From Cyanophora paradoxa CCMP329 (taxonomy: Eukaryota; Plantae; Glaucophyta), in NCBI GenBank assembly GCA_004431415.1, contig QPMI01000459.1, positions 1 through 64,000 of the forward strand: DNA of 64,000 nt, written 5' to 3'. Positions 1-21,133 of the stretch are shown here, piece after piece. The translations under genes and the position numbers were made by a program. How positions within the stretch are numbered: position 1 is the stretch's first letter; each line of letters opens with the position of its first letter. Below the pieces are notes generated by a model. The model was not told the DNA's origin and ran no database searches. It worked only from the letters and a program-made list of their open reading frames with translations.

Positions 1-20
1 ATCTGAATGAAGGGGGTAAA

Positions 21-1076
21 ATGGCCAAGGACCCCAAGAAGCCGAAGAAGCCGAAGGCGGCCAAGCCCCAGCCCGCCCAGCCCGCAGGCGCCCCGCGGCC
101 CCGCCCCGCCGGCCAGGCCACCGGCACGGGCTCGGGCACGGCCCCCGCCGCCGGCGCCAGCTGCGCCATGGGCATGACGAGGACGGCCACAGCTCACGCC
201 CGAGCAGGTCAACGCCTTCCTCGACAACTCGAAGACGGGCGGCATCGAGCGCATGGCCTGCCTGCCCGAGCTCAAGTGGTTCGACGTGAACACGTCAAGT
301 CCGACGCCACCGTCGTCTGCGTCGGCAAGCGGCGCACGGGCAAGTCCTTCTTCCTCCGCGATCTCATGTTCAACCTCTCCGGCACCTTCCCGGGGGGTAT
401 CGTGATCAGCCAGACCGATCGCCTGAACGGGTACTGGAAGCAGTACATACCCCAGCGCTTCATCTGGCCCAAGTACAACCGGGCGTGCTCTTCCATTTAT
501 TCAGGAGGCAGCAGGCGATCATGCAGCACAACAAGTCCGAAGACGTGCTCGCGGAAAGGAGGATCCCGTCGACCCGCGATTTTTCGTGCTGCTCGACGAC
601 GTGATTTCCGACGCTCGGCTGCGGTACGACGAGGCCCTCAACGAGCTCTTCGTGGCGGGGCGCCACTACAAAATCATGACCTTATCACGACGCAGTATGC
701 CAAGGGCATCAATCCGTCCTGCGCTCCAATACTGATCTGGCTGTCATTTTCAAGTGCTCGCAGGCGATGCAGCGCGAGGCCCTCGCAAAGGAGTGGGGCG
801 ACATCATATCCCAGCGCGCCTTCTACTACCTGCTCGACAAGTACACGCAGGATAACCACTGCCTTATCATCGATTCTTCCAACAACTCTACGAACCCTCT
901 GGACGTTCTGTACGTCTACAGGCCGAGGAGCCGCCCCCTTCCGCATCGGATCCAAGGAGTACTGGGAGGGCGAAACCGTCAACGGAGAAAATCTCGTGGG
1001 TCCGGACGACGGCACGGTGGACAAGACGCTCCTGGGCATGATAGATAATTTCAGGAAGCACCGCGGCCTCGCCTGA
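21..1076 (+). CDS. A32: A32-like (FtsK-HerA) genome packaging ATPase, broken by roughly ten frameshifts
   Basis: Walker A VVCVGKRRTGKS; in other frames Walker B RFFVLLDDVISD, ELFVAGRHYKI, ITTQYAKG, LRSNTDLAVIF and C-terminal PFRIGSKEYW. Confidence 0.9.
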   Translation: MAKDPKKPKKPKAAKPQPAQPAGAPRPRPAGQATGTGSGTAPAAGASCAMGMTRTATAHARAGQRLPRQLEDGRHRAHGLPARAQVVRREHVKSDATVVCVGKRRTGKSFFLRDLMFNLSGTFPGGIVISQTDRLNGYWKQYIPQRFIWPKYNRACSSIYSGGSRRSCSTTSPKTCSRKGGSRRPAIFRAARRRDFRRSAAVRRGPQRALRGGAPLQNHDLITTQYAKGINPSCAPILIWLSFSSARRRCSARPSQRSGATSYPSAPSTTCSTSTRRITTALSSILPTTLRTLWTFCTSTGRGAAPFRIGSKEYWEGETVNGENLVGPDDGTVDKTLLGMIDNFRKHRGLA

Positions 1077-1102
1077 TTTTTTCTGAGGCTTCGTGCGTAA
1101 GC

Positions 1103-1447
1103 ATGTCGCCCAGCGCCCACATCGCCTCCGTCTTCCGCGTCGAGTCCATCGTCTACGACTGCCTTCTGGAGTCAAGCCTCGACCCCTCCTCGCCCTTCAA
1201 CGACGGCGAGGTCAGCAGCGCCCTGGAGAGGATCTGCGACGCGCTGGGAATTAACTGGGAGCGCCTCACGTCGGAGGCGGCGGACGAGGCCGCGGCCGAG
1301 TCGCTGGGCAGCGAGGACACCAGCTCGGAAGAGATGACAGACGAAGAGGGAGACAGGGTTATTTACGTGCGCGACCCGGACGACTTTGCAACCTCGGAAT
1401 CGAGCTCGGAGGAGGAAGAGACCGAGGACGAGGACTCCGACGCCTAG
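1103..1447 (+). CDS. Viral hypothetical protein with acidic C-terminus (114 aa)
   Basis: Clean ORF, preceded by the viral upstream motif (TTTTTTCTG, 21 nt before ATG). Confidence 0.7.
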   Translation: MSPSAHIASVFRVESIVYDCLLESSLDPSSPFNDGEVSSALERICDALGINWERLTSEAADEAAAESLGSEDTSSEEMTDEEGDRVIYVRDPDDFATSESSSEEEETEDEDSDA

Positions 1448-1482
1448 GCGCGCCCCTTAAAAATTTCCGAGGCGCTAGGAAA

Positions 1483-1827
1483 ATGTCAAAGGTGCTCCTA
1501 GGGCTCTCCCAGGCTATCGTGCAGTACGCCCTCGGCCTGGCATCCGGCTCCCTCATCGACGCCGCCTTCTCCTCGCACGAAGGCGAAAACAGGGCGGGCC
1601 ACGCGGCCGAGCTCGCCGCGCAGGTCGCCGTCAACGGCCTCTCCCTCGGCCTGCTCTCGAAGTACGTGCTCACCCTCAAGTTCTTCGACGACGACCCCAC
1701 CGGCGGAATTATGTTCATCCTCGGATTCACACACGGGCAGACGAACATGCTAATCAAGGCTACCAGCGCTAGCTTCGGAATCAAGCAGGCGCTCGAGCGG
1801 AAGGCCGCCGCGATCACTAAAGAGTAG
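1483..1827 (+). CDS. Viral hydrophobic membrane/envelope protein (114 aa)
   Basis: Three hydrophobic segments (QYALGLASGSLID, AELAAQVAVNGLSL, PTGGIMFILGF..Q); upstream motif present; next to the ATPase. Confidence 0.7.
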   Translation: MSKVLLGLSQAIVQYALGLASGSLIDAAFSSHEGENRAGHAAELAAQVAVNGLSLGLLSKYVLTLKFFDDDPTGGIMFILGFTHGQTNMLIKATSASFGIKQALERKAAAITKE

Positions 1828-2777
1828 GAAAGAAATGCCAGTCGTTGTACTCGCAGATCCTGTTCCAAATCGAATCTAACTCCGAGAGTTTCTGCCTGCT
1901 CTTGAGCAAGGGGAAAAAGGGGAGGTGCTGGGGCAAATCTAGCAGCACGAAAATCTGCCTGAATACGTAATTGTAGTTGAGCATGTTCTTCCTGCCCTGT
2001 GACTTGAACATGCTGAAGGGGACCTCCACCAGGGCGAACATCTCCTGCACCCGGTCCATGTCCTCCGCGCTCATCGGAGGCGGGCGCTCGCCCGTGATGC
2101 GCCACTTGATCTGCGCCCAGCGCTCGATGTACTTCTGCTGCTTCAGAGCCCGGAGAACTTGGCGGATATTGTCTTTGCTCCACTCCTTCCCCGCCATGCG
2201 CCTCGCAATAGCTGCCAGCACGTCCTCGGGTACCGGAGAATCCTCCAGGCAGTGCTGCTTAAGTCGCTCAGATACGTGGTACTTCCGCAGGTAGTTGCTG
2301 TGGAGCTCGCTGACAGCCAGGGGTTGATGGTCCGGATAATAAAGATCCAGGACCAGACCGCAGCTTTGGCAAACCAGATCCCCATCCAGGTGAACACCAA
2401 CGAGGGCGGTAGAGCCGCAATTTCCGCAGGGGACAGCGGCTTCGCCTTGGGGGCCTTGGGTGCGGCGGTTGCGCTTGCGGGGGCGCTCTCCGGCCCGAGG
2501 TAGGAGTTGGCGATGGCGGCGGCGGCGGCGGGGTACGGTGCCGGAGCGTCGAAGTCTGGGTCCCCCTCGTCGTGAAGGATGGCTCCGTAGCGCTGGATCT
2601 GCTCAAAGTTTCGGAGGAGGAGATCGATTTCGCCAGAGTCTGCCATTCCTCCGAGTCCTCGTACTGCAGCTGGGCTATTCCCTTGCAGAAGTGGCAAACG
2701 GGCTTCGCGCAATCGAGTGGGTCCCAGCCGCAGGTGAGCCCGCAGATGTGACAGAAGGCGTTGCTCAGGTGATTCAT
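1817..2777 (-). CDS. VLTF3: Viral late transcription factor 3 (VLTF3, poxvirus A2-like), frameshifted; start at 2777 or 2646
   Basis: Zn-ribbon ...DGDLVCQSCGLV, YLRKYHVSERLKQ, and C-terminal RKNMLNYNYVFRQIFVLL...FPLLKSRQKL...IWNRICEYNDWHF, characteristic of the VLTF3 family. Confidence 0.9.
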
Positions 2778-2877
2778 GTGAGGCTCAGGTGGTGCTCAGG
2801 TGAGGTGCGGACGTACCCCGGGGCCCCACGTGGAAGCTCACCCCAGCCTCGGAAAATTTTCTAGGCCTTGGTCTGAC

Positions 2878-3720
2878 ATGCTCAACCTCATCGCGAGGGG
2901 CGTGGCAGCAAACAGGCAAGCCCGGGCACCGAACCCTCACCTCCGCATGGACGCCTCCGGCCGCTCCCGGGTAGAGACTCACATCGTGGTGGGCAACATC
3001 AACGACAAGGTGCTGGCGCCCGACAAGACGTGGTTCCAGAAGGTGCTGGACGCGGCGCCCGTGAGGAAACTGAACGGAGAGGATCGGCCCCAGCGCGAGT
3101 CGAATTTCATGATCACCATCCAGACCAACTACAAGCCGCGGAGCAGGGGAGAAGGCTCCAAGGTGCAGGACGCCTTTCACAGGGGGCTGGAGGCCCTCTT
3201 CTACGACGACAGGCAGCTGGCGCGGTGCATAAAGATGGGGGTGTACCCCGACAAGGCGAACCCCAAGGGCTTCGATTTCAAGTCCGACCAGTACGACACG
3301 CACGTGGAGAAGGGTAACGCGAACATCGGCATCGAGTACGGGCCGCGGTCGGGGCGGCTCCACGCGCACATCCTGCTCACGCTGGTGCACTACTCGCGCG
3401 TGCAATTCGACGGCAAGCGGGCGTCGGATTTCCTCATCAAGTTCATGCAAACGGAGGGACAGGGCGGCCTGCCGAATTTCTACAAGGACGACTGGTTCGG
3501 GGAGGAGTACCAGAAGACGGCGGTGCGGCCGATACGGAGAAAGGACGCCCTCGGCATGCAGTGGACGGGCAAGGAGACGGGCTACAGGAAGCGAGAAACC
3601 GCCAGGCAGATGCACGTAGACGTAAAATTGCTGCCGCAGAGCAACCTTAAGGATCTGCTGCAGCTGTACATTACGAAGACGGTAGAGGCCCTCGAGACGG
3701 GCGCTGTAAAGCTCGTGTAA
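2878..3720 (+). CDS. HUH-superfamily endonuclease, short paralog (280 aa)
   Basis: Motif I NFMITIQTN, motif II IEYGPRSGRLHAHILL, motif III LYITK (YxxK); ATG 2878 lies 18 nt after the upstream motif. Confidence 0.85.
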   Translation: MLNLIARGVAANRQARAPNPHLRMDASGRSRVETHIVVGNINDKVLAPDKTWFQKVLDAAPVRKLNGEDRPQRESNFMITIQTNYKPRSRGEGSKVQDAFHRGLEALFYDDRQLARCIKMGVYPDKANPKGFDFKSDQYDTHVEKGNANIGIEYGPRSGRLHAHILLTLVHYSRVQFDGKRASDFLIKFMQTEGQGGLPNFYKDDWFGEEYQKTAVRPIRRKDALGMQWTGKETGYRKRETARQMHVDVKLLPQSNLKDLLQLYITKTVEALETGAVKLV

Positions 3721-3743: not shown

Positions 3744-5773
3744 ATGCCTCCGAAGCGCCGAGGCCGCAAGAAGAAGCCAGAGAGCTCGAGCGAGTCAGAG
3801 GAAGAGGAGCCCACGTCCCCGTCCTCCGAGTCGGAGGAAGAAGAGGAGGAAGAGGAAGAGGAGCCGGAGCCTAAGCCGAAGGGCAAGGGCAAGGGGAAGG
3901 GAAAGGGAAAGGCAAAGGGAAACGCGCCGATACCGGCGTGGACGAGCTCGAGACGCCCGTCGTTGAGATTCCGAAGCGATACGTGCTGGTTCAGGGCGAG
4001 GACGGCATATTCCAGCAGCAGAAGAGCATATCCGATTACATCAAGCTCTCGGCCACCAAAGAAGTTCAGATGCTCCCATCGCTGCTCGATAAATCATACC
4101 ACGAGCCCGCGACCCTCTGGAGCATCCACAGCGAAATCGAGTACGATAAACTCCCCGAGGAGCGACTGCGCGCCATACCGCGCACGTACCAGAGCGCGCA
4201 GAAATCGCCGCCGATCTGCTACCGCTGCCTTCGCCTCATGTACGAGGCCACGCCCGTGCCGAGCGCCAAGGGGGCCAACACGCCAGAGAAAATCGCCGCG
4301 AGGGAGGCAGCGCAGGCGAGGAAGGATGCCGTGTACGAAGAGTACATTGCAGTCATAGAGAAGGCAAACGCGTGGGCAGCCAAGCAAAACGGCAAGGGAA
4401 AGAAAAAGGGCCAGGAGCCGTACCCCCTCATCAAGGACAAGAAGCCGGCGCAGGTGCCCACGGTGTCGCCCAGAAACTCGTGGCTCTGCCAGAAGTGCGT
4501 CACGTTGCTCGGCAACAAGGGCCTGCTCGTGATCTTGGGCCTGCAGAGGCGAAAGAGGGGCGACACGGCCACCGTCTCCAAGCAGACGCGCGACCACATG
4601 GTCGAGAGCGTGCTCGGCGGGCCGAAGCCAAAGACCACGAAAAAGGCAAAGGATACGGCCGCTGACTTCGGATCGTCCGTCATCGAGCCCAACTCCGCAC
4701 AGTCGAAAATCAGAAAGGCGAAAATCGTGGCGCCGAGCATGGAAGATTTAATGGCAACCTTCGCGGACGCGCAAGAGGTGAAGCAGAACATAGAGAAGGC
4801 GAAAACGGGACTGCAGGCGGCGCAGGCAAACGGGCTGGAGGCGCTCGAGAAGGTGATCACGGAAATCAGCGAGACGGGGCGGTCGGTCTTCATCCTCAAC
4901 AAAAAGAACCCCGACGGAAGCACGCGGTACGACATACGACAGGCGCGCCAGTCGCGCTACTGGGTGCTCTTCAACACCCACAAGCGCCTGGGAGAGGCGC
5001 GAGAATTCGAGGCGGCGGCGCTGCGCGACAGCCTCGCAGAGGTGCTCTCGGACGCAGAATTCTACAAGTTCATCCGCTTCAATTTGAAGGAGGAGAACGG
5101 CAAGTACAAGGACGACACGTACGCCAACGCAATCATCGGAATTCGCGTGCAAGGGGGCGTGGAGGTGGGGCCGACGGACGGGGCGCTGCACGCCCACGTG
5201 CTGGTGACGATCGATCACATATCGAACCTGCAGGTGCTGTGGGCGAATTACGACTGGGTGGTGCTGCTCAAGGAGAAGGAGCCGGGCACCACGACGGTGT
5301 ACGAGCGGCTGCACCAAATTCTGTCCGCGAAATTCACGGCGGCCGGGCAGCGCCTCGTAGACCAGAAGAGAGCAGAGGCAGGGCCGCAGCCGAGCATCGA
5401 TACGATGGTGGAAATCGCAGAGCTCGAGCGCATGCTGACGGAAGAGAAGATAGGCATGGGGAAAGATCCGCCCACCGTCCTTGCGTCGCTGATTCCGGAG
5501 GAAAATTACGCGAGCAAGCTGCAGGAGTACCTCTCGAAGACGCTGCCCGACAAGCAGAGGCGCGATTTACTGAAAGAGTGGTCGCACGCGCGAAACACGA
5601 ACAACACCGACAACAACACGGACGGGTACCTCTTCACGATTTTCCAAGCGGACGCCGGCCAGGCGGACGACCCCCGCTTTGCGCCGCAGGCCGCGGAAAT
5701 CGGCGATCTGAGGGCCAGGGGCCGAGGGCGCGGAAAGGGCAAGGGGCGCGGAAGGGGCAGGGGTAGCGGGTAA
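3744..5773 (+). CDS. HUH-superfamily endonuclease, long paralog (~676 aa, one frameshift near 3925-3935)
   Basis: YWVLFNTH, VEVGPTDGALHAHVLVTIDH, EYLSK (YxxK); N-terminal NLS-like PKRRGRKKK, acidic tract, CxxC pair (CYRC/CQKC), KG/RG-repeat tails. Confidence 0.85.
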
Positions 5774-5794
5774 TTGTTCTGACGCGCCCGCAAG

Positions 5795-6186
5795 ATGTTC
5801 GAGGGGCATGCACCCACTCGGACGTCATCACCGTAATCTGCGGCGCGCTCTTCCTGGTTTCCGAGCTCCTGGGCGGCACGGAGCGCGTGCGTCCCAACAC
5901 CGTGCTGGGCGCCCTGAAGGCGGCGGCCCTGAGGGTCGTGCGTCGCGGCGAGCCCGAGCCCGAGCCCCCACCCGAGCAGCAGAGGCGCGAGAGCGTGCAG
6001 GCGATCGGCCCGCACCACGTGGACATCCAGATGACGCAGACCGGTACGCGTTTTTTTCTAGAGAACATGGGAAATGGAGACTCCCGCGACAACAGCCCCC
6101 AGCGCAGAGGCTCCGTCGTCCTGCCCCGGCAGCAGCAGCAACAGTACGAGCACCAGCACCAGCACAGCGTTCCCTTGGCTTCTTAG
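5795..6186 (+). CDS. Small viral membrane protein (frameshift near 5805-5815)
   Basis: Motif-preceded ATG at 5795; the 5887-ORF frame reads DVITVICGALFLVSELLGGTERVRPNTVL (hydrophobic helix followed by SExL...N). Confidence 0.55.
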
Positions 6187-6442: not shown

Positions 6443-6464
6443 ATTTCTGAATGGGCCCTTAACA

Positions 6465-6676: not shown

Positions 6677-7126
6677 ATGTCCTGCGTCAACCTCTACGTC
6701 CAGTCGAACGGAGAGACGCAGGATTCCGAGGGCTTCTGGCGCCTCAGGCTGAACCAGATCCCCGCCGACATCGACACGCTGCAGATCAAGGGAGTCTACC
6801 TGGAGCTGGATACGACCGCGATTCCGGACCCCACCGCCGCGAAAACCGTCAACGTTCTGCTGATGGACGTGCCCGACTTGAACGTCACGACCATCTCGAA
6901 CGTCAACACGTGCATCAACAAGGTCGTGATCCCGACGTGGGGCCACGACGGCCTCGAGAACACCATCCTCTACTGGTTCGAGGTGCCCATGGCCGTGCGC
7001 CCCAACTACGTCGCGTACGACAAGTTCCAGGAGCTGCGCGTGCGCTTCACCGACATCACGGGCGCCACCAAGAAGAACAACGCCTTCATCGTCAAGAACT
7101 TCGGCCTCTGGGCCTTTGCGAAATAG
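6677..7126 (+). CDS. Putative single-jelly-roll minor capsid (penton-like) protein (149 aa)
   Basis: All-beta pattern LYVQS...WRLRL...IDTLQIKGVYLE...NVLLMDV...ELRVRFTDITG, resembling minor capsid proteins of Bamfordvirae; fold is inferred. Confidence 0.55.
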   Translation: MSCVNLYVQSNGETQDSEGFWRLRLNQIPADIDTLQIKGVYLELDTTAIPDPTAAKTVNVLLMDVPDLNVTTISNVNTCINKVVIPTWGHDGLENTILYWFEVPMAVRPNYVAYDKFQELRVRFTDITGATKKNNAFIVKNFGLWAFAK

Positions 7127-7146: not shown

Positions 7147-7623
7147 ATGCGCCTGATCATATTTCCGCGGAAGGGCTCGGGCGTCAAGACGCGCACCTTT
7201 GCGGGCGTGCCAGGCTACCCCTCGCCCCTCACTTACAGAGTCGATCTTGTAACCGCCTCTGGTCCAATTAAATACGGGCTGCTGCACAGCCTCAGTCACA
7301 TCCGTCTCGGCGAGAGCGCATGGCAGGACTTGGCCTTAATCGTAGAATTCGAGTACAGGGGGGTAGACACGCTCACGGGCGAGCACTTCTACAGGGTACG
7401 GGTAGCGAGGGAGGGGTACTCGCTGCCGAACGGCACGGGCGGGGAATACTGGGAGCCGAAAATACGCGACGCCTCCGAGGCCTACCGCTGGCTGCGCGAC
7501 GAGCAGATCGTTGTCAGGCCCGATTACCCCTACGCCGACGTTTTCTGGCAGGTGCCGGCGGGCCAGTGGACGACGGGCGAGGTGAGCGGCAAGCTGAAGT
7601 GGACCTGGGAGGCGGAGCGCTAG
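7147..7623 (+). CDS. Viral hypothetical beta-rich protein (158 aa)
   Basis: Clean ORF between two copies of the upstream motif. Confidence 0.65.
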   Translation: MRLIIFPRKGSGVKTRTFAGVPGYPSPLTYRVDLVTASGPIKYGLLHSLSHIRLGESAWQDLALIVEFEYRGVDTLTGEHFYRVRVAREGYSLPNGTGGEYWEPKIRDASEAYRWLRDEQIVVRPDYPYADVFWQVPAGQWTTGEVSGKLKWTWEAER

Positions 7624-7649: not shown

Positions 7650-10600
7650 ATGTCGATGCTTGCAGACCCCTGGCGCATGGCCATCCCGAATCCCGACGAG
7701 GTGCTGAACGGCGCCTTCGCGATAGACGGGAGCCTGAGCGTGAGGGGAATTTACGCGGACGAGATTCGGCTGCGGCAGGGATCCACGTACAACGATTTCC
7801 TGACGACCATAGGCTCGCTGGCGGACTACGGGGACCTCACCGCAATTATCAAGGGGCTCTGGGGGGTCACGACCGAGACGGGCGTGGACTGGAACATTAT
7901 TAAGAGGGCGGCCGACGTGAAAATCGCAAACTCCGTCACCGCAAAGGATGCCACCCTCAACCTCGTAAAACTGACTCTAAAGGGCGCAGAGGGGGACGTG
8001 AGGCCCGGGTACAACGCCCTCGAGCGCATCGCGGGCCCATTGCGCCACATCTACTGGAGCCGACAGGCGCTGCCGAGCATGGAGCCCGAGCAGTACAGGC
8101 GCGACAGGGAGGAGTTTTTCGCGTGGTTCGACCACTTCAAGGTCAACATCCGCGCCCTGAGCGCCGACAGGACGGGCGAGACGCCGGAGACGACGGGCGG
8201 GGGCCGCATCCCGACGGCGCCCGACGTGCTCCCCGATCGCTCGGACTGGGCGAAGACGCAGAACTGGGCGCTGAAGGACCACTTCCACGACGAGAGGTAC
8301 GCCCTCGTCAAGCACCCGCACGTGAAGGCCGACATCACGGACTGGGCGCACCGCCACCTGTACGACGACATCATCGGCGGGCCCAAGGTGCCGGGTGCGA
8401 TTCCGGGTGGGGGTACGGGTGGTGGAAGCACGGGAGGTGGGGGTACAGGCACCGGGGGTGGGGGTACAGGCACCGGGGGTGGGGGTACAGGCACCGGGGG
8501 TGGGGGTACAGGCACGGGGGGCGGAGGGGGCTCCAGCGGCACGCCAGTGGGCGGGGGCGGGGGCAGCAGCGGCTCGGGTGGCGGCGGCTCAGGCGGGGAG
8601 GCATGGATAAGGTAGCAGGCCTCGCCACTTCAACGGCCATCTTCGGGGGCGCCCTCATCGTAGGCGGCATCAAATACTACAAGGATCGGAAGGGTTCGTG
8701 AGGCAAATCGACGAGCTGAACGCGAGACCCCCCATTAAATTCGATACCGAGGACGCGCAGCGCGAGTACTACAAACTCGAGAACGAAAAGAAGCAATGGA
8801 GCGAGCTGAAAGACAAGGAAATGACAGAGGTCGCGGAGAAGAAGGCGGAAGCGAACAAGCTGATGACAGACGCGCAAAGGCAAGAAGAGAGCGCCCTCAC
8901 GGCGCTAAGGTCGGCAGAGCGCCAGGTCGCGGAAGAGCGCACAAAAATGATACTCGATGCCGAGGAGGAGCTGAAGAGGATAAACGAGCAAAGGGAAGCC
9001 GCCAAGGCGAAAAAGCTGCAGGAAATTGAAGCGCTGACCGCAGGCACCGAGCTGCTTGAGGCGCAGAGGAAAGAGATCGAGGATAGGAAGAAGAAATTGG
9101 AAAAGGAGGCAGAAACGAGAAGGCAGCTGCTGGAAGAGGAAGAGGAAACGAGGAGAAAGGCAGGAGAGCTGCAAACGGGGGCGGTGCAGGAGGCGAACAG
9201 GCTCCGGGAGGAAATCAAAAATTTAAAGGAGGCCGCCGAGCGCGCGGACCAGCAGTCGAAAAAATTCAAGGCCAACGCGGACGGGCTGGCACAGAGGCTG
9301 CTCAAGTACGCGGCCACCGCAGAGGCACGCTCGCCCATGGGGACGGCCGAGACGCAGACGACGCCGAGGCCCGATCCGAGGCCGGCCGCCGAGAGGCTGC
9401 CCTTCGCGCGGCTGGGTAGGAGCGACCAGGTGGAAGAGCTCATTGGCCTCACGCTCGAGGATCAGAGGGCCCTCTTCGACGCGTTAGAGCAGCGGCGCAG
9501 GGCGGACGAGGAGGCAGCTGCCAAGACAGAAGAGGAACGACTGAAGGCAATGCAAACTGCATCAGACGAGGAATTTGCACGGCTGGAGGAGCCGAAGGTA
9601 GCGGAGCGTAAGCGACGACTGGAGACGTTCAGGGGGGCGCAGATGGATTTTTACCGCTCGGAGCTCAAAAAACTCGCAGATGGAAAAGCATCAGGGGACA
9701 GGGTCCGCGCCATGGAAGAGAACATGCGCGACTTTAGCTACGTTATGGATCAGCTGACGGGAAGGGGTCAGAAAGACGCCGAAGAACTGAGGAGAAAGAT
9801 GGCCGATGAGAAGTGGAAAAACTTTGAGCGTCAGGCTGTTCAGAGGCCCATCAGCGATGCCATCTGGATAGCATACGGCGACGTGGAGGAGATGCACCGC
9901 GAACTGCGGACGGAAGTGAGCCTATGGCGGGGAGCCCTGGAATGGTCACTGTACCGGATGCAAAAGGGAAAGTTTGTGGCAGAGCTGCGAGCCAATCCGA
10001 AAACGGTGAGCATCGGCGCACAGAGCGCGTACGTCGGCATGATCAATTACGTGGAGAAGCTGAGCAAGTTTTGGGAAAAGCGAAGAGCCGTCATTCCAGC
10101 GGAGGGGCTTGCACAGTACGACGCCATGGTGCGCGATCTGGAGGCCTTTAAACGTGAGCATCCACCCGCCAAATACAAGCTTTACATAGATACAACGGCG
10201 TTCATAGGCGATCTAAGGAAGAGAGGAGACGAGGCCAAGAGTCAGATCGAGGAGCGCTACAGAAAGGCCCAAGCGGACAAGGAGTACGCAAACAGGGTGA
10301 TCGAAGAGCGGAAGCAGCAAGCCAAGGAGAACGCGGCGAGACGCAACGCCGAGATAGAAGAGCAGAGGCGGAAGATCGCAGAGCGCAAGGCGGCAGAGGA
10401 AGAGGCAAGAAAGACCAAGGTAGAGACAGAGTACCAAGCATTGAAACGGGAGGCCAATCAACTGTTAAAAAGGAGGGGAAGGGCCTACGCCGACGAGGGC
10501 GCGGGCGTGGGCTCGGCCAGCCCGGACGATATCACGCTCGCGGAGAGGGACGACGTTTCCGTGGAGGAAATGCGCCCGGGCACAGCTCGCCTGCCCTCCG

Positions 10601-13032: not shown

Positions 13033-14231
13033 ATGTCTGTCGCCGTCCCTCTATTCACCTACGCTGCCAGCGTGAATCACAAGGGCGATCACACGATTAA
13101 GGAGACCACCCTCGGGGACCAGGCCACCGAGACCCCTACAACGCCACGGCCGTCCCTTCTCCGAGGCCGATCTCGTGCGAGTCGGCGAGCTGCGCTGCGA
13201 TAAGATGCGCACGCGGGAGGGCGGATCGGCCGTGCCGGGGCGCGTGAAGACGCAGAGGCTCACCGTCACGAACGGCTCCTGGGACGGGAGTGGTCACACC
13301 ACAAACGCCCTGACGTTCAACAACGCAGATGGGAGGCGAATGCGGCCTTGTACGTGCAGGGAGGGGCGCTAACGTGGTCGGGGGATTGAGAGTCAACGGG
13401 GCTGCGACGGTTACCGGCGTCGTCAACGCAGTCTCGGAGCTCAACTCCCCTAACATAACCGGAACCGCTAATCTGTCCAATGCAACTATCGGTGCGCCGA
13501 CATCCATCGCAACTTCCGTCTTGAACGTTAAAAGCAAAGACGTCGGAAGCGGACAATGGGCAAGCCTGTGGTGGGATTTCGACAACCGACACTACATGGG
13601 CGTGAAAAACTACAAAGTGGCCGATCAAGCCACCGTGACCTTATGGAACGATACAGCGGCCTGCCCTTTCTTTGTTGCTGCCCTCGGGTCTACGACAGGT
13701 CGCTCCATCGCAGCCGGGGGCACGGTCAACACCGCAGGAAGCGATTACGCAGAGTACATGCTAAAGAAATCCAACGACTTTGCCTTCAACAAGGGCGATA
13801 TCTGTGGGGTGAACGGCTCAGGACTCCTAACCAATCAATTTACGGAGGCCGTCACGTTCGTGGTGAAGAGCACCAACCCATCCTTCGTAGGGGGCGATAC
13901 CTGGGGCCAGTCCCTTGGAATGGCCCCCCTGAAGCCGGAAACGGACGACCCCACCGCCCTCGCAACCTACGAAGCCGCCCGCGCCGCCTGGGAGTCAGCG
14001 GCAGAGGCGAATCGGCAGCTGGTCGATCGGATTGCATTCTGTGGACAGGTCCCCGTGAACGTCAGCGGTGGGGGCCCGGGAGATTACGTGGTACCCACCC
14101 CAGGACCCAACGGAGCAATCGCCGCCCAGGCCGTGGCCGCCCCATCCTTCGACCAGTACAGGGTCGCCGTCGGTAGAATCATTCGAGTCGTTTCAGATAC
14201 GCAGGCGCTAATTATCGTGAAGGTTGTCTGA
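13033..14231 (+). CDS. Fibre/spike protein with C-terminal Peptidase_G2-like intramolecular chaperone (several frameshifts in the 5' part)
   Basis: Motif-preceded ATG 13033; ALYVQ-GGANVVGGLRVNG fibre repeat; GSDYAEYM...GDICGV...STNPSFVG...IAFCGQVPV...GDYVV...AVGRII. Confidence 0.75.
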
Positions 14232-14289: not shown

Positions 14290-16372
14290 TTACATGAGCG
14301 CGTGAACGGCACTGGCGTCCGTAATAAACGTGTTAAAGAAGAGCACATCGTCGACCCAGCCGTTCCAGAGGTGCGCGGGGGATGACTCGGTGACACCCGC
14401 TCCAATGCGCAGGGGATACTGCGTGTTTGGAGCGTAGCCGGCTGTCCTTGTTTCTACGGTTGAGCCCACGCGAATGGAGTGTGTCGTGCCATTGTACCCT
14501 ACGGCAATCTTATACTGCGTACCTGCATTCGCTGCACTCGTTCCGAAATCAGTCCACGCAGAGCCATTGCCCGTGTAGGACAGAAACACGCCATTGTTCC
14601 TGTACAACGAGTAGCCCGTGAACATGCCGCGGGATGCTACAGGGGTCCAATAAGTTCCTGTTGTCGTAGCGGTGAAAAGGCAGGAGCAAAGTACCGAGTA
14701 CGTCGAGGTATTGAGGGCTGCAGAGTAGGGAACTTGCAGATAATGGGAGCTGCCGACATCGAATGTCACCCGGCCACTCGTATAGCGAGGTTGCAAAGAT
14801 GCTGTATCCTGGGTCGCGTGCCTCCCACCCCCCGTCTGATCGTACATTGTCTGAACAGTTGCCGTGTACCCCGTCACCCAAGTCGTGTAACTTGTTCCAG
14901 ACCGATCGTACGCAGAATTCAAGACGCCTGAATAGTCAGCGTACCAATCGGCGGTAATTCCATCGCTGCGACGCAGACGGAGCGTGGGTCCGACATAAGA
15001 GGGCCGAACCCTTCGGGTTGAGTATGCGGCCACCAGTGCATTCTTGGTGGCCGTTGAAATGGTGGCGCTGTCCATAAAACTGTCAATTGTCGTCGCAAAG
15101 GCACTGCTGGAGGCAGGCCCCTCCTCGCCAATCTGGTTAACGCCCTTGACGGTGTAAGTGTAGGTCGTCCCGAACGCGGTCGTCCCGAACGCGGTCGTCG
15201 CGTCCGAATAGGGGCTGCTGACGTCGTTCGCGAGAAAGACGCCGTCCCTGTAAATGTTGTAGGAGACGGTGACGCCCGTCGCCGGCGCCGACCAGGCAAG
15301 CACCACTGGCTGGGCGGCCCCCGCCGTCGGAGTCGCGGTGAGCTCCGTGGGCGCCGCCGGATCCGTGGTGACATACGCCACAATGCTCTTCGGTCCCTCC
15401 CCTCCCGAGTTCGTCGCGGAGACCTGGTACTCGTACCCCGTACCCCAGATCGTGGTCGCGTCGCTATAGGAGTTGGTCGCGGAGTCTGCGAGGTAGGCCC
15501 CGTCCCTGTAGATCTTGTACCCCGTCGCCCCCGTTGGCGCCGTCCAGCTGAGGCTGACGGGCTGCTCTATGTCGTCGGGCGCAGTCGTCGTCACGTTCGT
15601 GGGCGCGTTCGGCGTCGTCCAGACCGGGAGCGGATCGGACTTTTCGTATTCGACCCGCCCACGATGCCGGCCACCTGGTAGGAGTACTCCGTACCCCACG
15701 CAAGGGCAGTGCTATCGTCGATGTACGAGGTAGCTAGGGCGCTGCTTGCGAATCCGATAGGGGTGCCGTCTCTGTAAATTCGAATCGAGTCCGCGCCCTC
15801 CATGGCCACCCAATTGATTGTGACGACGATGGCGGGTTTCGGGAAGCCGGAAGACGCGGGGCCGCCCCGGCAATAAAATCGCCGTAGGTCTGGGCCGTGG
15901 CGGTTGTGAGCGTGGTGTACGCCTCGATCTGAGGGTTGAAGCCGCTCAGGCCTTGGAAGAGAATGTAATTGCTTGTAGTGCCCTCGTGCGTGTAGAGAAG
16001 CGACTGTGCGTAGGTTGTGGGTGGGGCTTTGCCATCGGAGCCCGTGCTGCTGCTGCCCTGCTCGCGAACCGCGGCCACCCGGTAGAGACGTAGCTCGCCA
16101 AAATTAAAGGGCGTGTCCGTGTACGTGAGCGTGGGGGCGTTCACAGTGTTCACCAGCGTCCAGGTGCCATTGAGGCTCGTCGCCCTGTACACCTTGTACT
16201 TGACGGCGTTGGTGACAGCACCCCAGTTCAGTCGAAATCCGTAGGTACCGCCCCCGTTGTTGAGCACGGAGCCCGATCGCACCTGGGGCCTGCCCACAGT
16301 GAGCGAGATCGGCTCCACGCCGTACTGCGGAGCCTGCACCACCTGTTTCTTCACGAATACAAAGCGGGGCAT
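14290..16372 (-). CDS. Fibronectin-III repeat protein with C-terminal arabinofuranosidase-B-like/LamG (ConA-like) domain; frameshifts near 15,680-15,870
   Basis: Four FN3-like units (LxW...Y(K/N)IYR...YxDx...YxYxVxA); AAYSTRRVRPSYVGPTLRLRRSDG...YDQTGGGRHATQ...IGAG...WNGWVDDVLFFN. Confidence 0.8.
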
Positions 16373-16411: not shown

Positions 16412-17089
16412 ATGACTTCCAACTGGTACCAGACTCTCAACTCCCTCGACGCCGGCAACAACAACTCAAACTTCGCGCGCATCCCCTCCGGCAGCTACGT
16501 CGACGTCTTCCTGCAGAATCCCGTCGTGATTCAAGCCGTTCAGAACGCCTACGCCACGCCCAAGATCTACTCCTACCAGCTCTTCTTCGACCCGTCCACT
16601 CTCAGCGCAGAGGTCATTGAGCTGCTCCACGAATCCGGCCTCGTGAAAAGGGTGGCGCCCGCCACGGCCACGGCCAACGTCCTGCGCTGTCTCGAGGTTA
16701 AGTTCAGGGAGACGGGGTACGGCCCCACCGTGAACCAGTACACCGATACCGCGCTGCCGGGTACGGGTGCGTTTACTGCGCGGGGTACGCTCAAGGGCGA
16801 CGTGCTCTTCACGAAATTCAATCCGAGTCCCGCCACCCTGGGAGCCCTCTACACGGGCGGCAACCCGCGCGCTTCCGGGCTACCCCGCTTCCCCTTCACC
16901 TTCTTCAAGTTCCAGGTCTTCCCCCTGCCCTACGCCGCCGACCAGCCCCACTTCAGCACGGGCGCCAGCCTCTGCGCGGAGCTGCGCGAGTGCTCGATTT
17001 CCTACAGGCACACCACCGGCTCCGACGCCGTGCAGCCCGCGGCCCGCCTCTCGGGCATCGGCAACGACATCGCCCTCTTCTACGGATAA
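16412..17089 (+). CDS. Viral beta-rich protein, paralog A (225 aa)
   Basis: Clean ORF; shares VxxQNP, YxxFD...SAE...SGLxK, LExKF, NPRA..PRxxFTxFxF with the next gene. Confidence 0.8.
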   Translation: MTSNWYQTLNSLDAGNNNSNFARIPSGSYVDVFLQNPVVIQAVQNAYATPKIYSYQLFFDPSTLSAEVIELLHESGLVKRVAPATATANVLRCLEVKFRETGYGPTVNQYTDTALPGTGAFTARGTLKGDVLFTKFNPSPATLGALYTGGNPRASGLPRFPFTFFKFQVFPLPYAADQPHFSTGASLCAELRECSISYRHTTGSDAVQPAARLSGIGNDIALFYG

Positions 17090-17112
17090 TCTTTCTCATC
17101 CGAGGTCGCAAA

Positions 17113-17895
17113 ATGCCTTCCACCTCGAGCACCATCGTGAAGACCGTGCTGCCCACCCCCGATTTCTACGGCGATGTCGCAGCGGCCAACGCCGGGACGG
17201 ATTCCGTGGTCTGGGACGGCAGCTACGCCTCCATGCTGACCGTGAAGATCCAGAATCCGATCATGCTGCGCGTCACCTCCAACGATTTCGAGAATCCCGC
17301 CTCCTGCTCCGTGTACGTGTACTTTGACATCGACTCGGGTGTGAGCGCGGACGAGGCGGAGGCCCTCTGGCTCTCTGGCCTCCTGAAAAAGATAGAGCCC
17401 TCCGTGCCGGATCGGCCCGCAATCCGAGTGCTCGAGCTCAAGTTCACTGCGAACACCGCCCTCACTCGCACCTTTAACGGCGGCTCCAAGACCCACATAG
17501 ACGGCACCGCCATCGATGCCACTCACAAGACCACGCAGGCCGTCCCCTTTGAGATGTACAATCTCTGGAAGATGACCGCAAAGGAAATGATGACGAATGC
17601 CACCACGGGTGGAGTCTCGGGTACCTCGTTTTCCTATGATTCCTCGAATCCCCGTGCCCAGCTCTGGCCCCGGCTCCTCTTCACGAAATTCACTTTCAAA
17701 TTGTACAACAACATTGCGGGTATGCCTACCTCTGGAATGGTCGTGGGTTCTACCCTCATGGCCGAGTTGATAGAAGCAGAGGCCGACTACACGACTGCCA
17801 CCACCAACCCTGCAAACGGCACGTCTACAAACTACGTATCCTGGGCCACGATCGGTCGCGAGTACGACACTAAGATTCACACCACTAGCGTCTAG
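17113..17895 (+). CDS. Viral beta-rich protein, paralog B (260 aa)
   Basis: True start MPSTSS at 17113, 19 nt after the motif; collinear similarity to 16412..17089. Confidence 0.8.
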   Translation: MPSTSSTIVKTVLPTPDFYGDVAAANAGTDSVVWDGSYASMLTVKIQNPIMLRVTSNDFENPASCSVYVYFDIDSGVSADEAEALWLSGLLKKIEPSVPDRPAIRVLELKFTANTALTRTFNGGSKTHIDGTAIDATHKTTQAVPFEMYNLWKMTAKEMMTNATTGGVSGTSFSYDSSNPRAQLWPRLLFTKFTFKLYNNIAGMPTSGMVVGSTLMAELIEAEADYTTATTNPANGTSTNYVSWATIGREYDTKIHTTSV

Positions 17896-18250
17896 ACTGG
17901 CTGAGCTGCACCAGCGCCTGCGCTGCCTCCATCATCTCCGCAATCTCCTCGCTCTTCTGCTGCAGGCTCGTACCCTCCCTCCTCTTCTTCTGGATCTCCG
18001 ACATCGATACCCAGCGCAGGTTCTCCCTCCTGTAGTCCAGCGGGTTGCCGTTGATGTGCTCCACGTACAGTCCACGTGGCGGCTTCCCGAGGATGAGCTG
18101 GGAGAGGTAGTGCTTGCGCCTCCCGAAGGTCTTGGTCACCCTGCCCCTGTCCAGTCGCCAGGGAAACTCCATCGCACTCCGGGGCACGTCCGAGTTGACC
18201 AGGACGTTGTAGGGCAGGTCGCGGGAGTCGGTGCACTTGAGCAGGGCCAT
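17885..18250 (-). CDS. HNH_3-family endonuclease-like protein, degenerate active site (121 aa)
   Basis: YLSQLILGKPPRGLYVEHINGNPLDYRRENLRWVS versus consensus LHRxI...VDHINGxxLDNRxxNLR. Confidence 0.8.
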   Translation of the reverse strand: MALLKCTDSRDLPYNVLVNSDVPRSAMEFPWRLDRGRVTKTFGRRKHYLSQLILGKPPRGLYVEHINGNPLDYRRENLRWVSMSEIQKKRREGTSLQQKSEEIAEMMEAAQALVQLSQSRR

Positions 18251-18289
18251 TTTGCCCTAGGCTCAGAAAATGTTCGACCGGGGACCTTG

Positions 18290-18775
18290 GACCTTGGTGC
18301 TCGGACCTTGGTGCTTGGTGCTTGGTGCTTTGGAAGCGTTTCTCTCAGGGTCCCGGCCCAGACTTTCTCCAGGATCAGAAATTTGTCAGACAAGTCAGGT
18401 GAGTTTTTCTACGGACTTTTTTTACTCGTAGTCTTTTTTAGTCGTACCACCCCTCATACTCTTTTTTACTCGTAGTCTTTTTTACTCTTACGACTTCTCG
18501 TACCCTCTGTCTCTTGACATCTCGCTTGAAATCGCTCTCGAAAACTCTGTCGACATTTCAGACTCTACCTCTCTCGAAATCTCACCTGGAATGTCACCGG
18601 AAACGTCGTATGCAAAATGCAGTACCCCTTTCTAAGTCTGCCCGATGGTTAATGACTTGGCGCGGCAAACTCGCAGATCCAGAGAAAGTCTGGACCCAGA
18701 CTCTGAGAGTAACGCTTCCAAAGCACCAAGCCCCAAGCCCCAAGCACCAAGCCCCAAGGTCCGAGCACCAAGGTC
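18290..18775. repeat. Imperfect ~110-120 bp inverted repeat (18290-18397 / 18653-18775) with CCAAGNC heptamer arrays, around a T-rich spacer with 24-bp direct repeats
   Basis: Reverse complement of the right arm aligns with the left arm (gaccttggtgctcggaccttgg...cttggtgctttggaagcgtt.ctctcag.gtc..g.ccagactttctc...caagtca); spacer repeat ttttttactcgtagtctttttta at ~18416 and ~18461. Confidence 0.9.
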
Positions 18776-18833: not shown

Positions 18834-19885
18834 TTACAGCATCTCAAAATCAGAGTCATCGTCGGAAACCAAGTCAATCGGGGCCTCGGGCGCGGACTTA
18901 AGGGGAATGCGGGGAAGGGCCTGCGCTGCCTGCACTAAGTCCTGCCGCTCCTGCTCGCGCTGCGCCGCCAAGGCCGCTGCCGCCTCTGCCTCGCGCCGCT
19001 GCTGAGCCTCGACGCGCGCCCTAAGTTCCGCTGACTCCTTCTTCTTGCGCTCGGCAATCTTGGCCAGCGTCATCTCGCGACGAAGAAGGCGCTCGTGACG
19101 CAACTTGCGTCGGAGTTCGGCCATTTCGCGCTTGGCGATGATGCGCTTCTCAATGGTCTTGACGTGCTGAGTCAGGCGCTTGCTGAAGTGTGACGTCACG
19201 CGAGAACGGGCAATGCCAGCGCCGATCTTCAAGTCTTTTTCGTGTTCCTTGGCGGGATTCTTGACTCGCTCGGAGTTGTCGGTGAATGACGTGGTCTCCA
19301 TGAACTTCTTCTTGACGATTGACTTGGTCTTGATAATGCGGCGCTTGCGAGTCGGGTTTTCGTTGTCGCCTTCAGAGTCGGAAGAGGACTCAGAGTCGTA
19401 TGGAATCGGCACGTCAAAGTCGATAAAGTCGTTGATGTCAGACTCGGCGTCAGAGGCCTCGGACTCGGCGTCATCGACTGGCTCGGGAGCGGGCTCGGCG
19501 ACGGGCTGAGGGGCAGATGACGACGATGACGGAGGGGGGTAATTCGTGAAGACTTGAGGGGGATAGGCCCAGGCGAGCGTCTCGGCGGCAGACTCGGCGA
19601 AAAGCTTGGGGTCGCCCCAGCCAGTGGGAGTCTTGACCCAGCCGGGGACGGGGGCACGTCGACGGGCTCGGGCTTGGGCTCGGGCTTGGGTTGCTTGGAC
19701 TTGGGCAGAAGGGAGGATACAAAGTTGAGGTTGATGGTATGGAAGCCTTCTCCGCTGTGAGCTTGGTAGAGGTACCCCAGCTTGCGGGCACGCTTCTCCA
19801 TTTCACGGGTAGGCCAATCGCGGGACTTAGCCCACATCTCACGGGCCTTGGCAAGGTCCTCGACAAGCTCAGAGGGAATCGACAT
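18834..19885 (-). CDS. Viral nuclear regulatory-type protein (~350 aa, frameshifted): acidic tract, NLS, coiled coil, C-terminal SIM-like motif
   Basis: MSIPSELVEDL... joins via frameshifts to ...DAESDINDFIDFDVPIPYDSES...TRKRR...APIDLVSDDDSDFEML*. Confidence 0.65.
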
Positions 19886-20224: not shown

Positions 20225-20695
20225 TCACCCTGGTAGTGCCCTCTCAAAGGGATTTTCGAAGCCGTACAATTCTTGGTAAGTCTCGTAATCCGGGCTGTAC
20301 CCCCTCACAATCTGCGGGAGCCCCATTGAAAGCCTCCGTCTATCCTCTCTCAATTCCCTGCGGAAAAGTCTACGGTCTTCTCGAGCTTCGCGTGTCACGC
20401 CAGCTGGGCGTGGTCTATGATTGTTAGGGTTGTCGTAGCCTGGTCCCACCAGCCTCACGAAATTTTCGCGTATGGCCTCGGGGAGGCTCTGGAAACGGCT
20501 CGTCGCGTGGAACTCAATCCATTCATTGAATCGACGCGGATATTGACGGATGACTTCAAGCACGCCCTGTAAGTTGGGCTCTGGTGTTACGTCGGGGATG
20601 TCATGTCCCGTGAGGTGCCAACGCCAGAACTCGCGCAACCTTTCGAATGCCATATTCAACTCAAAGGGAAAATCGTAATAGAGATTGCCTGACAT
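20225..20695 (-). CDS. Viral hypothetical protein (156 aa)
   Basis: MSGNLYYDFPF start 16 nt after AAATTTTCGG on the - strand. Confidence 0.7.
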   Translation of the reverse strand: MSGNLYYDFPFELNMAFERLREFWRWHLTGHDIPDVTPEPNLQGVLEVIRQYPRRFNEWIEFHATSRFQSLPEAIRENFVRLVGPGYDNPNNHRPRPAGVTREAREDRRLFRRELREDRRRLSMGLPQIVRGYSPDYETYQELYGFENPFERALPG

Positions 20696-20726
20696 TTTTC
20701 TCCCCGTCCGAAAATTTCCCCGCTTT

Positions 20727-20788
20727 TGGGTCCAGACTCTGATTTTAACTCTTCCCAAGTCCCAAGTCCCAAGTCCCAAGTCCCAAGT
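20727..20788 (+). repeat. Third, partial copy of the 18.3/18.7 kb repeat with 5 perfect CCCAAGT heptamers
   Basis: tgggtccagactctgattttaactcttcccaagt(cccaagt)4 versus tggacccagactctgagagtaacgcttccaaagcaccaagccccaag at 18691 onward. Confidence 0.85.
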
Positions 20789-20861
20789 TTTCGATCGATT
20801 TCACGCGTGAAAAACGCACTTTTCGGCCTTTTCGCATTTATTTTCTCTACCCCGGCCCAAA

Positions 20862-20999
20862 ATGGACCCCCTCCCCGAAATCGCGATCGAAAATGGTCGC
20901 GATCGTCTCGTTTTCGCGATCGTCGTGATCGGAATCGTCATCGCGATCGTCGCGATCATGGTGATCACCAGCCTCGTCTACGGTACCCCCCAGCTGTGA
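20862..20999 (+). CDS. 45-aa single-pass membrane microprotein (below the ORF-track cutoff)
   Basis: MDPLPEIAIENGRDRLVFAIVVIGIVIAIVAIMVITSLVYGTPQL*; ATG 18 nt after ATTTTCTC, AAAATG context. Confidence 0.7.
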   Translation: MDPLPEIAIENGRDRLVFAIVVIGIVIAIVAIMVITSLVYGTPQL

Positions 21000-21001
21000 C
21001 C

Positions 21002-21022
21002 CGGAGGTTATAAGAACCTCCG
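21002..21022. terminator. Perfect hairpin just after the last viral stop codon
   Basis: cggaggtt-ataag-aacctccg (8-bp stem, 5-nt loop). Confidence 0.4.
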
Positions 21023-21133
21023 CAATCCAAGCGTCACTTCCGAGTCTCGAGCTCTCGGAGTTGCCTTTTCGCGTTTGGCCCATTGATGGCCCTCTTATAT
21101 ATATTTGCGTGACCGCGGATCTCCCGTCTGCAG

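Follow-up and report, generated by a model that had tools for sequence, protein, structure and literature searches.

A multicopy endogenous virus in the nuclear genome of Cyanophora paradoxa, likely a deep branch of the Mriyaviricetes closest to gamadviruses

Bases 1 to ~21,100 of the window (the whole 64,000-nt stretch of DNA analysed) are best read as the right-hand ~21 kb of an endogenous virus that occurs in many copies in the nuclear genome of the glaucophyte Cyanophora paradoxa, likely representing a deep branch of the Mriyaviricetes closest to the gamadviruses, likely replicating by a nuclear HUH rolling circle and possibly also inserting by means of its HUH endonucleases (overall probability roughly 0.8). 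This part of the element encodes an A32 ATPase, VLTF3, two tandem HUH endonucleases and fibre-like genes (Table 1). Genomes of Mriyaviricetes span 35-45 kb, and their gene set includes VLTF2, RuvC, PDDEXK, a helicase and Mriya_1/48/50/51. Within this class, the 'Gamadviridae' comprise the Pleurochrysis endemic viruses and Phaglo-G / NDDV (Yutin et al. 2024, PMC11253617).

Table 1 Features of the element and its host flank, with coordinates in the window.
Feature	Position	Strand	Remarks
A32-like packaging ATPase	21..1076	+	broken by 9 single-base frameshifts in assembly; sister-copy profile matches
Small acidic ORF	1103..1447	+	13-member cluster, kept in sister copies
114-aa homolog of gamadvirus gene between ATPase and VLTF3	1483..1827	+	cluster profile E 3e-12
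VLTF3 late transcription factor	1817..2646	-	PF04947; frameshifted at least once, near 2.44 kb
HUH endonuclease 1 (HUH1, 280 aa)	2878..3720	+	H162-A-H164 and Y264xxK267 intact
HUH endonuclease 2 (HUH2), long N-terminal extension	3744..5773	+	sister copies 676 aa; this copy frameshifted once, near 3.93 kb
Candidate minor capsid protein	6677..7126	+	only a lead, from Atlas (0.87, unnamed viral clusters)
Conserved ORF	7147..7623	+	17-member cluster
Large coiled-coil / fibre-like gene	7650..13008	+	apparently single ORF, two frameshifts near 8.6-8.7 kb
Phage-like fibre-associated gene	13033..14231	+	phrog_34132 E 2e-44; frameshifted
Repeat-rich surface-protein-like gene(s)	14290..16372	-	weak PHROG tail E 2e-4 to 0.02; frameshifted
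Two tandem paralogous ORFs (225, 260 aa)	16412..17895	+	30% identical, E 3e-18; 14-member cluster
HNH endonuclease	17885..18250	-	PF13392 E 3e-8
Non-coding inverted repeat, candidate replication origin	18276..18775	.	94-nt arms, 83% complementary
Three orphan ORFs	18834-19301, 19229-19885, 20225-20695	-	none matched in Pfam/PHROG scans
Element right end	21035..21104	.	finishes in TATATATAT run at 21,096-21,104
Single-copy host flank, non-viral	21105..23937	.	apparently intron and later exons of spliced gene

Profile matches and intact HUH motifs bear out the original prediction, made from the sequence alone, that an A32 ATPase and VLTF3 lie beside a tandem HUH pair. Sister copies of the ATPase match Pox_A32 weakly (E 1e-3) and the gamadvirus ATPase profile at E 1e-99; the copy in the window shares 341/356 residues with a sister gene model of 356 aa, and Walker A is kept in 14 of the 15 listed members. 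The ORF at 1103..1447 had no Pfam or PHROG match, while the cluster of the adjacent 114-aa gene was found in 56/57 gamadvirus-type loci (BLAST matches in 14 loci). Pfam PF04947 matches the VLTF3 ORF 1817-2197(-) at E 1e-23, and against the open frame 1820-2602 the VLTF3 profile of gamadviruses reaches E 9e-61; in gamadviruses VLTF3 is convergent with the ATPase, and the same arrangement is seen here. HUH1 and HUH2, which are paralogous and lie directly beside VLTF3, have HAH and YxxK invariant in 6/6 aligned HUH rows, and the sister members of HUH1 keep HAH in 13/13 and the Tyr motif in 12/13. Both the Mriyaviricetes trait of an HUH endonuclease with motifs II and III and the Gamadviridae trait of a duplicated HUH (HUH + HUH_long) are present, and a gamadvirus locus (L125) has the same tandem arrangement of HUH and long HUH. 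HUH2 may be considered an analogue of gamadvirus HUH_long. In a FastTree HUH tree HUH1 falls, with weak support, nearer to short (170-200 aa) HUHs than to gamadvirus HUHs.

Kinship was assessed from the best 80 of 345 ATPase loci in IMG/VR. Fifty-seven of these 80 lie on contigs of <=43 kb, are 42-52% identical and carry MCP, RuvC, YqaJ and VLTF3 in gamadvirus order, and an MCP profile built from them retrieves the MCP of Pleurochrysis endemic virus 1a; the other 23 are at 34-37% identity (10 over 50 kb, 8 GVMAGs). The Cyanophora clade (100/100) falls outside both the giant viruses (100/100) and the gamadviruses (99/99) in the ATPase tree (24/80 loci, LG+G4; quick tree 74 rows), and in the VLTF3 tree the gamadviruses are monophyletic (100) to the exclusion of the Cyanophora element, with giant viruses separate, so that the element nests within Gamadviridae in neither. 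As predicted, it is mriyavirus-like, its ATPase and VLTF3 being nearest to sampled gamadviruses by identity and profile, and it is not nested among giant viruses, both proteins being separate from the 23 sampled contigs. Its description as sister to the gamadviruses follows from midpoint rooting together with identity, and long-branch joins are flagged in the trees. The claim of a new lineage holds in part: the element forms its own branch outside sampled gamadviruses, but the trees comprise gamadvirus and giant-virus references, with Yaraviridae, Zoravirus-type and PLV references left out. Searches for Yaraviridae outgroups gave gamadvirus and giant-virus contigs once more, or a single Mollivirus match. 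VLTF3 and HUH scans of IMG/VR and two JGI metagenome scans returned no close locus.

In agreement with the prediction, Pfam (27 ORFs) and PHROG (23 ORFs) scans of the visible 21 kb found no PolB or other DNA polymerase, RNAP, integrase or protease. MCP, VLTF2, RuvC, PDDEXK, SSB and helicase were also not visible in the 21 kb (no helicase was part of the profile set), and profiles for RuvC, YqaJ and unnamed gamadvirus clusters found no match within this stretch, which is part of the element only. In all, 25/28 gamadvirus cluster profiles had no match in the 21 kb, among them profiles of genes located between VLTF3 and HUH in gamadviruses; the Gamadviridae-specific set considered comprised PEV_8 to PEV_35, mCP and SSB, and the element is partial and divergent. 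From gamadvirus gene order, a double-jelly-roll MCP is expected left of base 1; an MCP search gave no Cyanophora protein among the 120 of 457 matches listed. The predicted fibre genes are supported by PHROG matches, including that to phrog_34132. One sister model covers both pieces of the large fibre-like gene, whose C-terminus carries phage-tail repeats (PHROG tail E 1e-8) and an H_lectin match below the cut-off (E 0.009), and the gene(s) at 14290..16372 presumably have an FN3-like and lectin-like appearance. The ORF at 6677-7126, predicted to be penton-like, gained no backing from Pfam, PHROG or PDB-sequence searches, none of which gave a match; its product may have a jelly-roll look. The paralogs at 16.4-17.9 kb were considered as a split jelly-roll capsid (model pLDDT 30, which is uninformative; Atlas 0.84).

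Two non-coding signals accompany these genes. The inverted repeat encloses a 312-nt spacer holding a 44-nt tandem pair and, folded as ssDNA, reaches a z of -11.8, with 0/100 shuffles equally stable; this modelled fold is consistent with a putative replication origin. A TTTC motif common to gamadvirus genes lies 9-22 nt upstream of most element ORFs. There was no Rfam match in 1-30,000, and no tRNA was found in the window.

Dozens of near-identical copies of the element share its right end, a feature that the original prediction had missed. The predicted recent insertion is supported. Element gene models occur on 47 contigs at 97-99% identity, and gene order is colinear in 32/32 contigs carrying two or more element genes (sister copies were read through gene-model names and proteins only). 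Nine full-length ATPases among the copies are 96.9-99.4% identical, and near-identical proteins in EukProt are assigned to Cyanophora paradoxa, as expected from the predicted glaucophyte host.

The right end, previously put at 21,050, actually lies at ~21,095-21,104, where the element closes in a TA run; sister copies diverge at the same point, and their flanks are unlike that of this copy (agreement 0.53). Summed contig depth drops there from thousands to single-copy level, and subterminal element contigs are 17-20 times deeper than the flank. Over the final ~100 nt, depth exceeds that of the subterminal part; because summed contig depth is not equivalent to copy number, terminal inverted repeats do not follow from it. 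A unique 2865-nt contig begins at 21,073 and spans the junction with 0 differences in 3/3 DNA runs (X1, X6 and X9), which derive from different samples, at a flank depth of 90/45/35 versus 83/48/25 for the host gene; three loose-end contigs behind 21,104 were among those listed, all in one run (X6). The element is therefore endogenous and its junction not chimeric, as had been predicted, and the predicted contiguity with intron-rich host genes is confirmed by a TMEM260-like gene at ~24.4 kb (E 4e-12). The flank itself shows GT/AG boundaries at some of its apparent exons. One presumed RNA run gave no contig over 20,800-23,100, which speaks neither for nor against expression. A search for a hairpin at the right end gave nothing notable (fold z -1.7). 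This analysis of ends covers the right end of this copy only, with no empty site and no target duplication in view.

By analogy with the family (Yutin 2024), host DNA polymerase would extend from the HUH nick in a nuclear rolling circle. On the same grounds, VLTF3 would help host RNA polymerase on late genes, possibly at the TTTC motif, the ATPase would package DNA into a double-jelly-roll capsid whose gene would lie in the unseen left half as in gamadviruses, and the fibre and lectin genes would bind the host. A defined end and colinear order across dozens of copies point to enzyme-driven, end-specific insertion. Given the proposed identity, the enzyme may be one of the two HUH endonucleases, through a putative Y1-type strand transfer into TA-rich intron or intergenic DNA, a tentative choice at less than even odds that we nevertheless prefer to a recombinase encoded in the unseen half, itself a slightly weaker possibility. 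Among structural matches to an AF2 model of HUH1 (pLDDT 58), IS200/IS605 Y1 transposases ranked first and third, with middling Z of 7.8 and 7.0 and 10-11% identity; the best BFVD match was an unnamed protein (E 5e-10). The Y1 transposases (IS200/IS605 TnpA) resemble the Cyanophora HUHs in fold and in their HUH and catalytic Tyr motifs, but the latter sit inside a capsid-packaging virus, and their role in transposition is a conjecture from motifs and fold. IS91, Helitron and AAV Rep are further HUH analogues. The fullest version of this reading, a family-level, glaucophyte-infecting and integrase-less branch of the Mriyaviricetes whose duplicated HUH acts as a Y1 transposase at TA runs and has produced dozens of recent insertions, is somewhat unlikely as a whole; if true, it would place a Helitron-like rolling-circle lifestyle inside the Nucleocytoviricota, with relatives still circulating in the environment.

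The rival that survives best, although rather unlikely in itself, is that the same virus was inserted by a tyrosine recombinase or retroviral-type integrase encoded in the left half, with the HUH pair serving replication only. That half lies outside the window, a defined end fits any integrase, and the accessible text of 10.64898/2026.06.19.733378 describes RVE or YR genes as frequent in mriyavirus-related VC102, VC134 and VC218. Accidental capture of one or a few viral genomes by host repair, followed by host duplication or the activity of neighbouring transposons, has been proposed for Nucleocytoviricota regions without mobility genes (accessible text of 10.1101/2025.04.19.649669), and viral genes in C. 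paradoxa are methylated (PMC12344493); however, the copies occur on 47 contigs, are colinear and diverge from this one at a single point with unlike flanks (0.53), this flank being single-copy, and capture is a distinctly less probable explanation. Still less probable is a mosaic, in which a polinton-like virus or Zoravirus-type element took up mriyavirus genes. Many PLVs occur in C. paradoxa, one of which has a fibre that combines two phage-tail repeats with H-lectin, as here (PMC12220804), about half of Zoraviruses encode HUH (10.64898/2026.06.19.733378, accessible text) and most visible ORFs have no gamadvirus homolog, yet the ATPase, intervening small gene, convergent VLTF3, tandem HUH and upstream motif favour gamadviruses, in trees from which PLVs are absent. 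That the sequence comes from a large giant virus (GEVE), or from a contaminating virus joined to host DNA in the assembly, is very improbable: VLTF3 and A32 are Nucleocytoviricota markers and GEVEs are reported in C. paradoxa, but the ATPase and VLTF3 have lower identity to, and form a clade separate from, those of giant viruses, and a join is already contradicted by the junction in three runs at host depth.

Among known systems, the Gamadviridae share with the Cyanophora element the block of ATPase, small gene and convergent VLTF3, the tandem HUH and HUH_long with intact motifs, the lack of PolB/RNAP as far as the visible 21 kb show, an algal genome and the TTTC upstream motif. In contrast, trees of ATPase, VLTF3 and HUH place the element apart from the clade of sampled gamadviruses, its long HUH has 676 aa versus 1,500-1,900, its HUH pair adjoins VLTF3 with other gamadvirus genes not detected in the interval, and it occupies a glaucophyte host, where it has a defined end and is spread over at least 47 contigs. 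The predicted new host group does not hold, because embedded Mriyaviricetes-related regions in a Glaucocystophyceae assembly were reported earlier (bioRxiv 10.1101/2025.04.19.649669, Fig. 5f, S2); the presence of mriyaviruses in a glaucophyte assembly is already known from that preprint. From the shared viral class and host class, those regions are very probably the same family, although the accessible text devotes two sentences to them, without copy number, ends, target or gene map. Methylated giant-virus endogenous elements with clustered Nucleocytoviricota-like genes were described in C. paradoxa by Sarre et al. 2025 (PMC12344493), where they were assigned to giant viruses by best hit and 'mriya' is absent from the main text. 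Endogenous PLVs and Zoravirus-type elements are likewise small DNA viruses that are integrated in multiple copies and have phage-like fibres (PMC12220804; 10.64898/2026.06.19.733378, the latter in its accessible text), but usually carry RVE or YR, neither of which is visible in the Cyanophora element with its VLTF3 and duplicated HUH. We found no published account of so many copies having a defined end and, as far as visible, no integrase, of a deep lineage with environmental relatives, or of an upstream TTTC motif that the element shares with gamadvirus genes.

Among living lineages, mriyaviruses have been proposed to be the nearest to the giant-virus ancestor, and to our knowledge almost all of them come from metagenomes. 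Because a cultured, sequenced alga carries dozens of recent colinear copies, existing DNA can address how an apparently integrase-less member of the Nucleocytoviricota enters a chromosome, what lies behind the duplication of the HUH and which target VLTF3 recognises (TTTC being a candidate). A deep branch is added near the gamadviruses, and many Cyanophora 'gene models' are viral.

The earlier statement that there is no in-frame nonsense decay does not hold for the assembled sequence, given the frameshifts in the ATPase and HUH2 (Table 1); VLTF3, the fibre gene and the genes at 13.0 kb and 14.3-16.4 kb are also frameshifted. Nonsense codons were absent from the two aligned genes (ATPase, HUH2), and relative to its sister the ATPase shows 9 deletions, 0 insertions, 0 nonsense changes and 4 substitutions. 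Because the ATPase frameshifts are all deletions, without nonsense changes, and the single-copy flank has 0 differences/2865 nt, the frameshifts are quite probably long-read consensus errors in a repeat near the contig end.

The viral block at the left of the window is a real, endogenous, recent and multicopy element of the Cyanophora paradoxa genome. To ~21,100 the DNA is gene-dense and without introns (GC about 54–65%), and from 24 kb it is intron-rich (GC mostly 62–76%). Positions 20,800–25,200 were compared with Logan contigs from one RNA-guess run and three DNA runs, and in all three DNA runs a single 2,865-nt contig spans 21,073–23,937 with no differences to the window, at depths of 90, 45 and 35 against 83, 48 and 25 for host gene contigs. 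Of this contig, 31 letters fall on the element's side of 21,104. Subterminal element contigs are 17–20 times deeper, and in one DNA run (X6) three contigs depart from the reference beyond 21,104 and continue in dissimilar sequence (agreement 0.53). Because of these departures and the junction contigs in every DNA run, the element can be said to stop at the TATATATAT run and the join not to be chimeric. The window contains six runs of this kind, and the boundary run could be the element's or the target's. The accessible text on Phaglo-G, a gamadvirus, describes flanking short tandem repeats (10.1101/2022.07.28.501842).

Features of the viral element and its host flank (window positions)
Feature	Position	Strand	Remark
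ATPase	21–1076	+	
VLTF3	1817–2646	-	
HUH1	2878–3720	+	
HUH2	3744–5773	+	long version
Penton-like ORF	6677–7126	+	candidate
Fibre region	12,250–13,005		phage-tail repeats, weak H-lectin domain
Inverted repeat	18,276–18,775		candidate replication origin; ssDNA fold z -11.8
Arm of inverted repeat	18,691–18,751		recurs near 20.7 kb (79% over 61 nt), ~350 nt inside the right end
Terminal run	21,096–21,104		
Apparent later part of a spliced gene	21,105–22,330		AT-rich introns; Pro-rich coiled coil in the last exon
High-copy repeat	23,908–24,243		no Rfam or tRNA match
TMEM260-like O-mannosyltransferase	24,365–29,300		
DEAD-box helicase	47,000–50,100		
Tandem arrays	52,666–56,510		long; related units of 113–304 nt

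A search with the HUH1 protein returned 17 clusters (15 EukProt, one ENA and one JGI). Cluster members carry the name Cyanophora paradoxa, with several of the window's own proteins among them. Pooled gene-model names place element genes on at least 47 distinct contigs, a floor that may include the window's own contig and some redundant haplotypes, and on each of the 32 contigs where at least two element genes lie, their order is that of the window. Identity among nine full-length ATPase models is 96.9–99.4%. The original prediction of a recent endogenous insertion is borne out; Walker A is intact in 14 of the 15 ATPase models listed. Close relatives outside this genome occur in ENA, JGI and Logan contigs (ATPase 75–87%, HUH 58–70% identity), and both genes seem to share a single Logan contig of 8,181 nt, judged by the equal length of the contigs hit.

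The prediction had also seen no in-frame nonsense decay. This holds for the aligned ATPase, which has no nonsense codon, but frameshifts affect the ATPase, HUH2, VLTF3, the fibre gene, the gene at 13.0 kb and the gene at 14.3–16.4 kb. In frameshift-aware alignments the ATPase, its reading distributed across all three forward frames, matches sister proteins at 341 of 356 residues, with nine single-base deletions, no insertions and four substitutions, and HUH2 has one deletion relative to a 676-aa sister. As the single-copy flank is error-free while the repeat carries deletion-only damage, the pattern is what a long-read assembly would show where polishing had failed; according to the accessible text of PMC6704402, the species' published assembly is from PacBio data with majority-rule Illumina correction. 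Such errors are the most likely source of the frameshifts, and real decay of the element body is a less likely one. Among the EukProt sister models (P0055, P0020), Walker A is altered in one full-length ATPase and the Tyr motif is absent from one HUH1, and some copies may therefore be truly decaying.

Of the proposed viral genes, VLTF3 is clear (Pfam PF04947, E 1e-23), and the two tandem HUH endonucleases proved to be paralogs that both keep the HAH and YxxK motifs, while the penton-like ORF, unconfirmed by sequence searches, is retained as a candidate only. Among the best 80 of 345 loci in an ATPase scan of IMG/VR, 57 lie on contigs of at most 43 kb (42–52% identity) and 23 on contigs at 34–37%, many of them from giant viruses. 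In gene order the 57 follow the Pleurochrysis viruses (RuvC, MCP, YqaJ, ATPase, a 113-aa gene, then VLTF3 in convergent orientation); three of 28 gamadvirus cluster profiles (ATPase, 113-aa gene, VLTF3) match the window. HUH similarity came from separate comparisons, in which one gamadvirus locus (L125) has the same tandem HUH plus long gene. In four further gamadvirus contigs (L001–L003 and L052), a 1,260–1,300-aa DUF285 repeat protein upstream of the ATPase (locus 5,700–9,600) replaces the usual MCP-to-SSB block.

In a careful ATPase tree of 28 rows, a Cyanophora-type clade (100/100) lies outside both the gamadviruses, which group without the element (99/99), and the giant viruses (100/100). 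The VLTF3 tree agrees, and in a tree of 149 rows HUH1 makes a separate clade. Against the giant-virus and gamadvirus rows sampled, the element does not nest within giant viruses; all trees flag joins between long branches, and none includes Yaraviridae, Zoravirus or PLV rows. Judged from these sequences, the element is probably best placed close to the gamadviruses, as a deep lineage of mriyavirus type. In its workings it resembles a mriyavirus, and it has three class features, so that much of the predicted identity stands, but it does not nest within Gamadviridae and MCP is missing from the visible part, leaving its filing incomplete.

The host link was already noted in a preprint whose accessible text describes a Glaucocystophyceae assembly with Mriyaviricetes regions embedded in it and prefers accidental insertion as the explanation (bioRxiv 10.1101/2025.04.19.649669); integration biology was not. 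In the literature as accessible we found no text on the element's copy number, end, target or motif, though that preprint's figures or supplements may hold copy numbers or maps. Following the accessible part of Yutin 2024, replication would be rolling-circle, in the nucleus and by host polymerase. We argue instead of accidental insertion for an enzyme-driven step, because many colinear copies share one defined end. The predicted HUH1 structure (pLDDT 58) finds an IS200/IS605 Y1 transposase at rank 1 (Z 7.8, rmsd 3.7, 122 aligned) and rank 3 (Z 7.0). Rank 2 is a viral protein without relation to these, and parvovirus NS1 and SIRV1 ORF119 come further down; the Z values are middling and were weighed together with the HAH/YxxK motifs. 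HUH enzymes carry out strand transfer in IS200/IS605 elements, to which HUH1 is a structural match, and such transfer is also known from IS91, Helitrons and AAV. We slightly favour HUH-mediated insertion, ahead of a recombinase encoded in the half not seen; the part seen shows no usual integrase, and a 2026 preprint, as far as accessible, states that mriyaviruses lack integration genes and that related clusters carry RVE or YR (10.64898/2026.06.19.733378).

Of 21 ORF starts chosen in the element, 13 have a TTTC-type motif 9–22 nt before the ATG, compared with 31/438 ATGs in the element and 14/703 in the host. In gamadvirus loci the motif stands before the ATPase (21/44 loose, 28/44 strict), MCP (11/23, 10/23) and the gene after VLTF3 (19/31, 21/31), is rare before VLTF3 (3/38, 1/38) and RuvC (0/17, 1/17), and has a background of 673 (loose) and 375 (strict) in 21,336 ATGs; the element's VLTF3 likewise lacks it. 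The motif is a candidate late promoter, and only a lead because the pattern was defined after inspecting both sets; the word 'Promoter' is absent from the main text of Yutin 2024.

The fibre region resembles that of one C. paradoxa PLV described in accessible text on glaucophyte PLVs (PMC12220804), which suggests either fibre exchange between PLVs and the element virus or that the published PLV belongs to the element's family. Methylated giant-virus elements are also described for C. paradoxa in the accessible text of PMC12344493. On the host side, no single Logan contig crosses the high-copy repeat at ~23.9–24.25 kb into the TMEM260-like gene. This separate repeat reaches a summed contig depth of up to 36,000 against 90, is deep also in the RNA-guess run and is possibly SINE-like or another transcribed repeat. 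The element appears to lie within an intron of the spliced gene, whose upstream exons would lie beyond its left end, and several host introns appear to begin with GC rather than GT.
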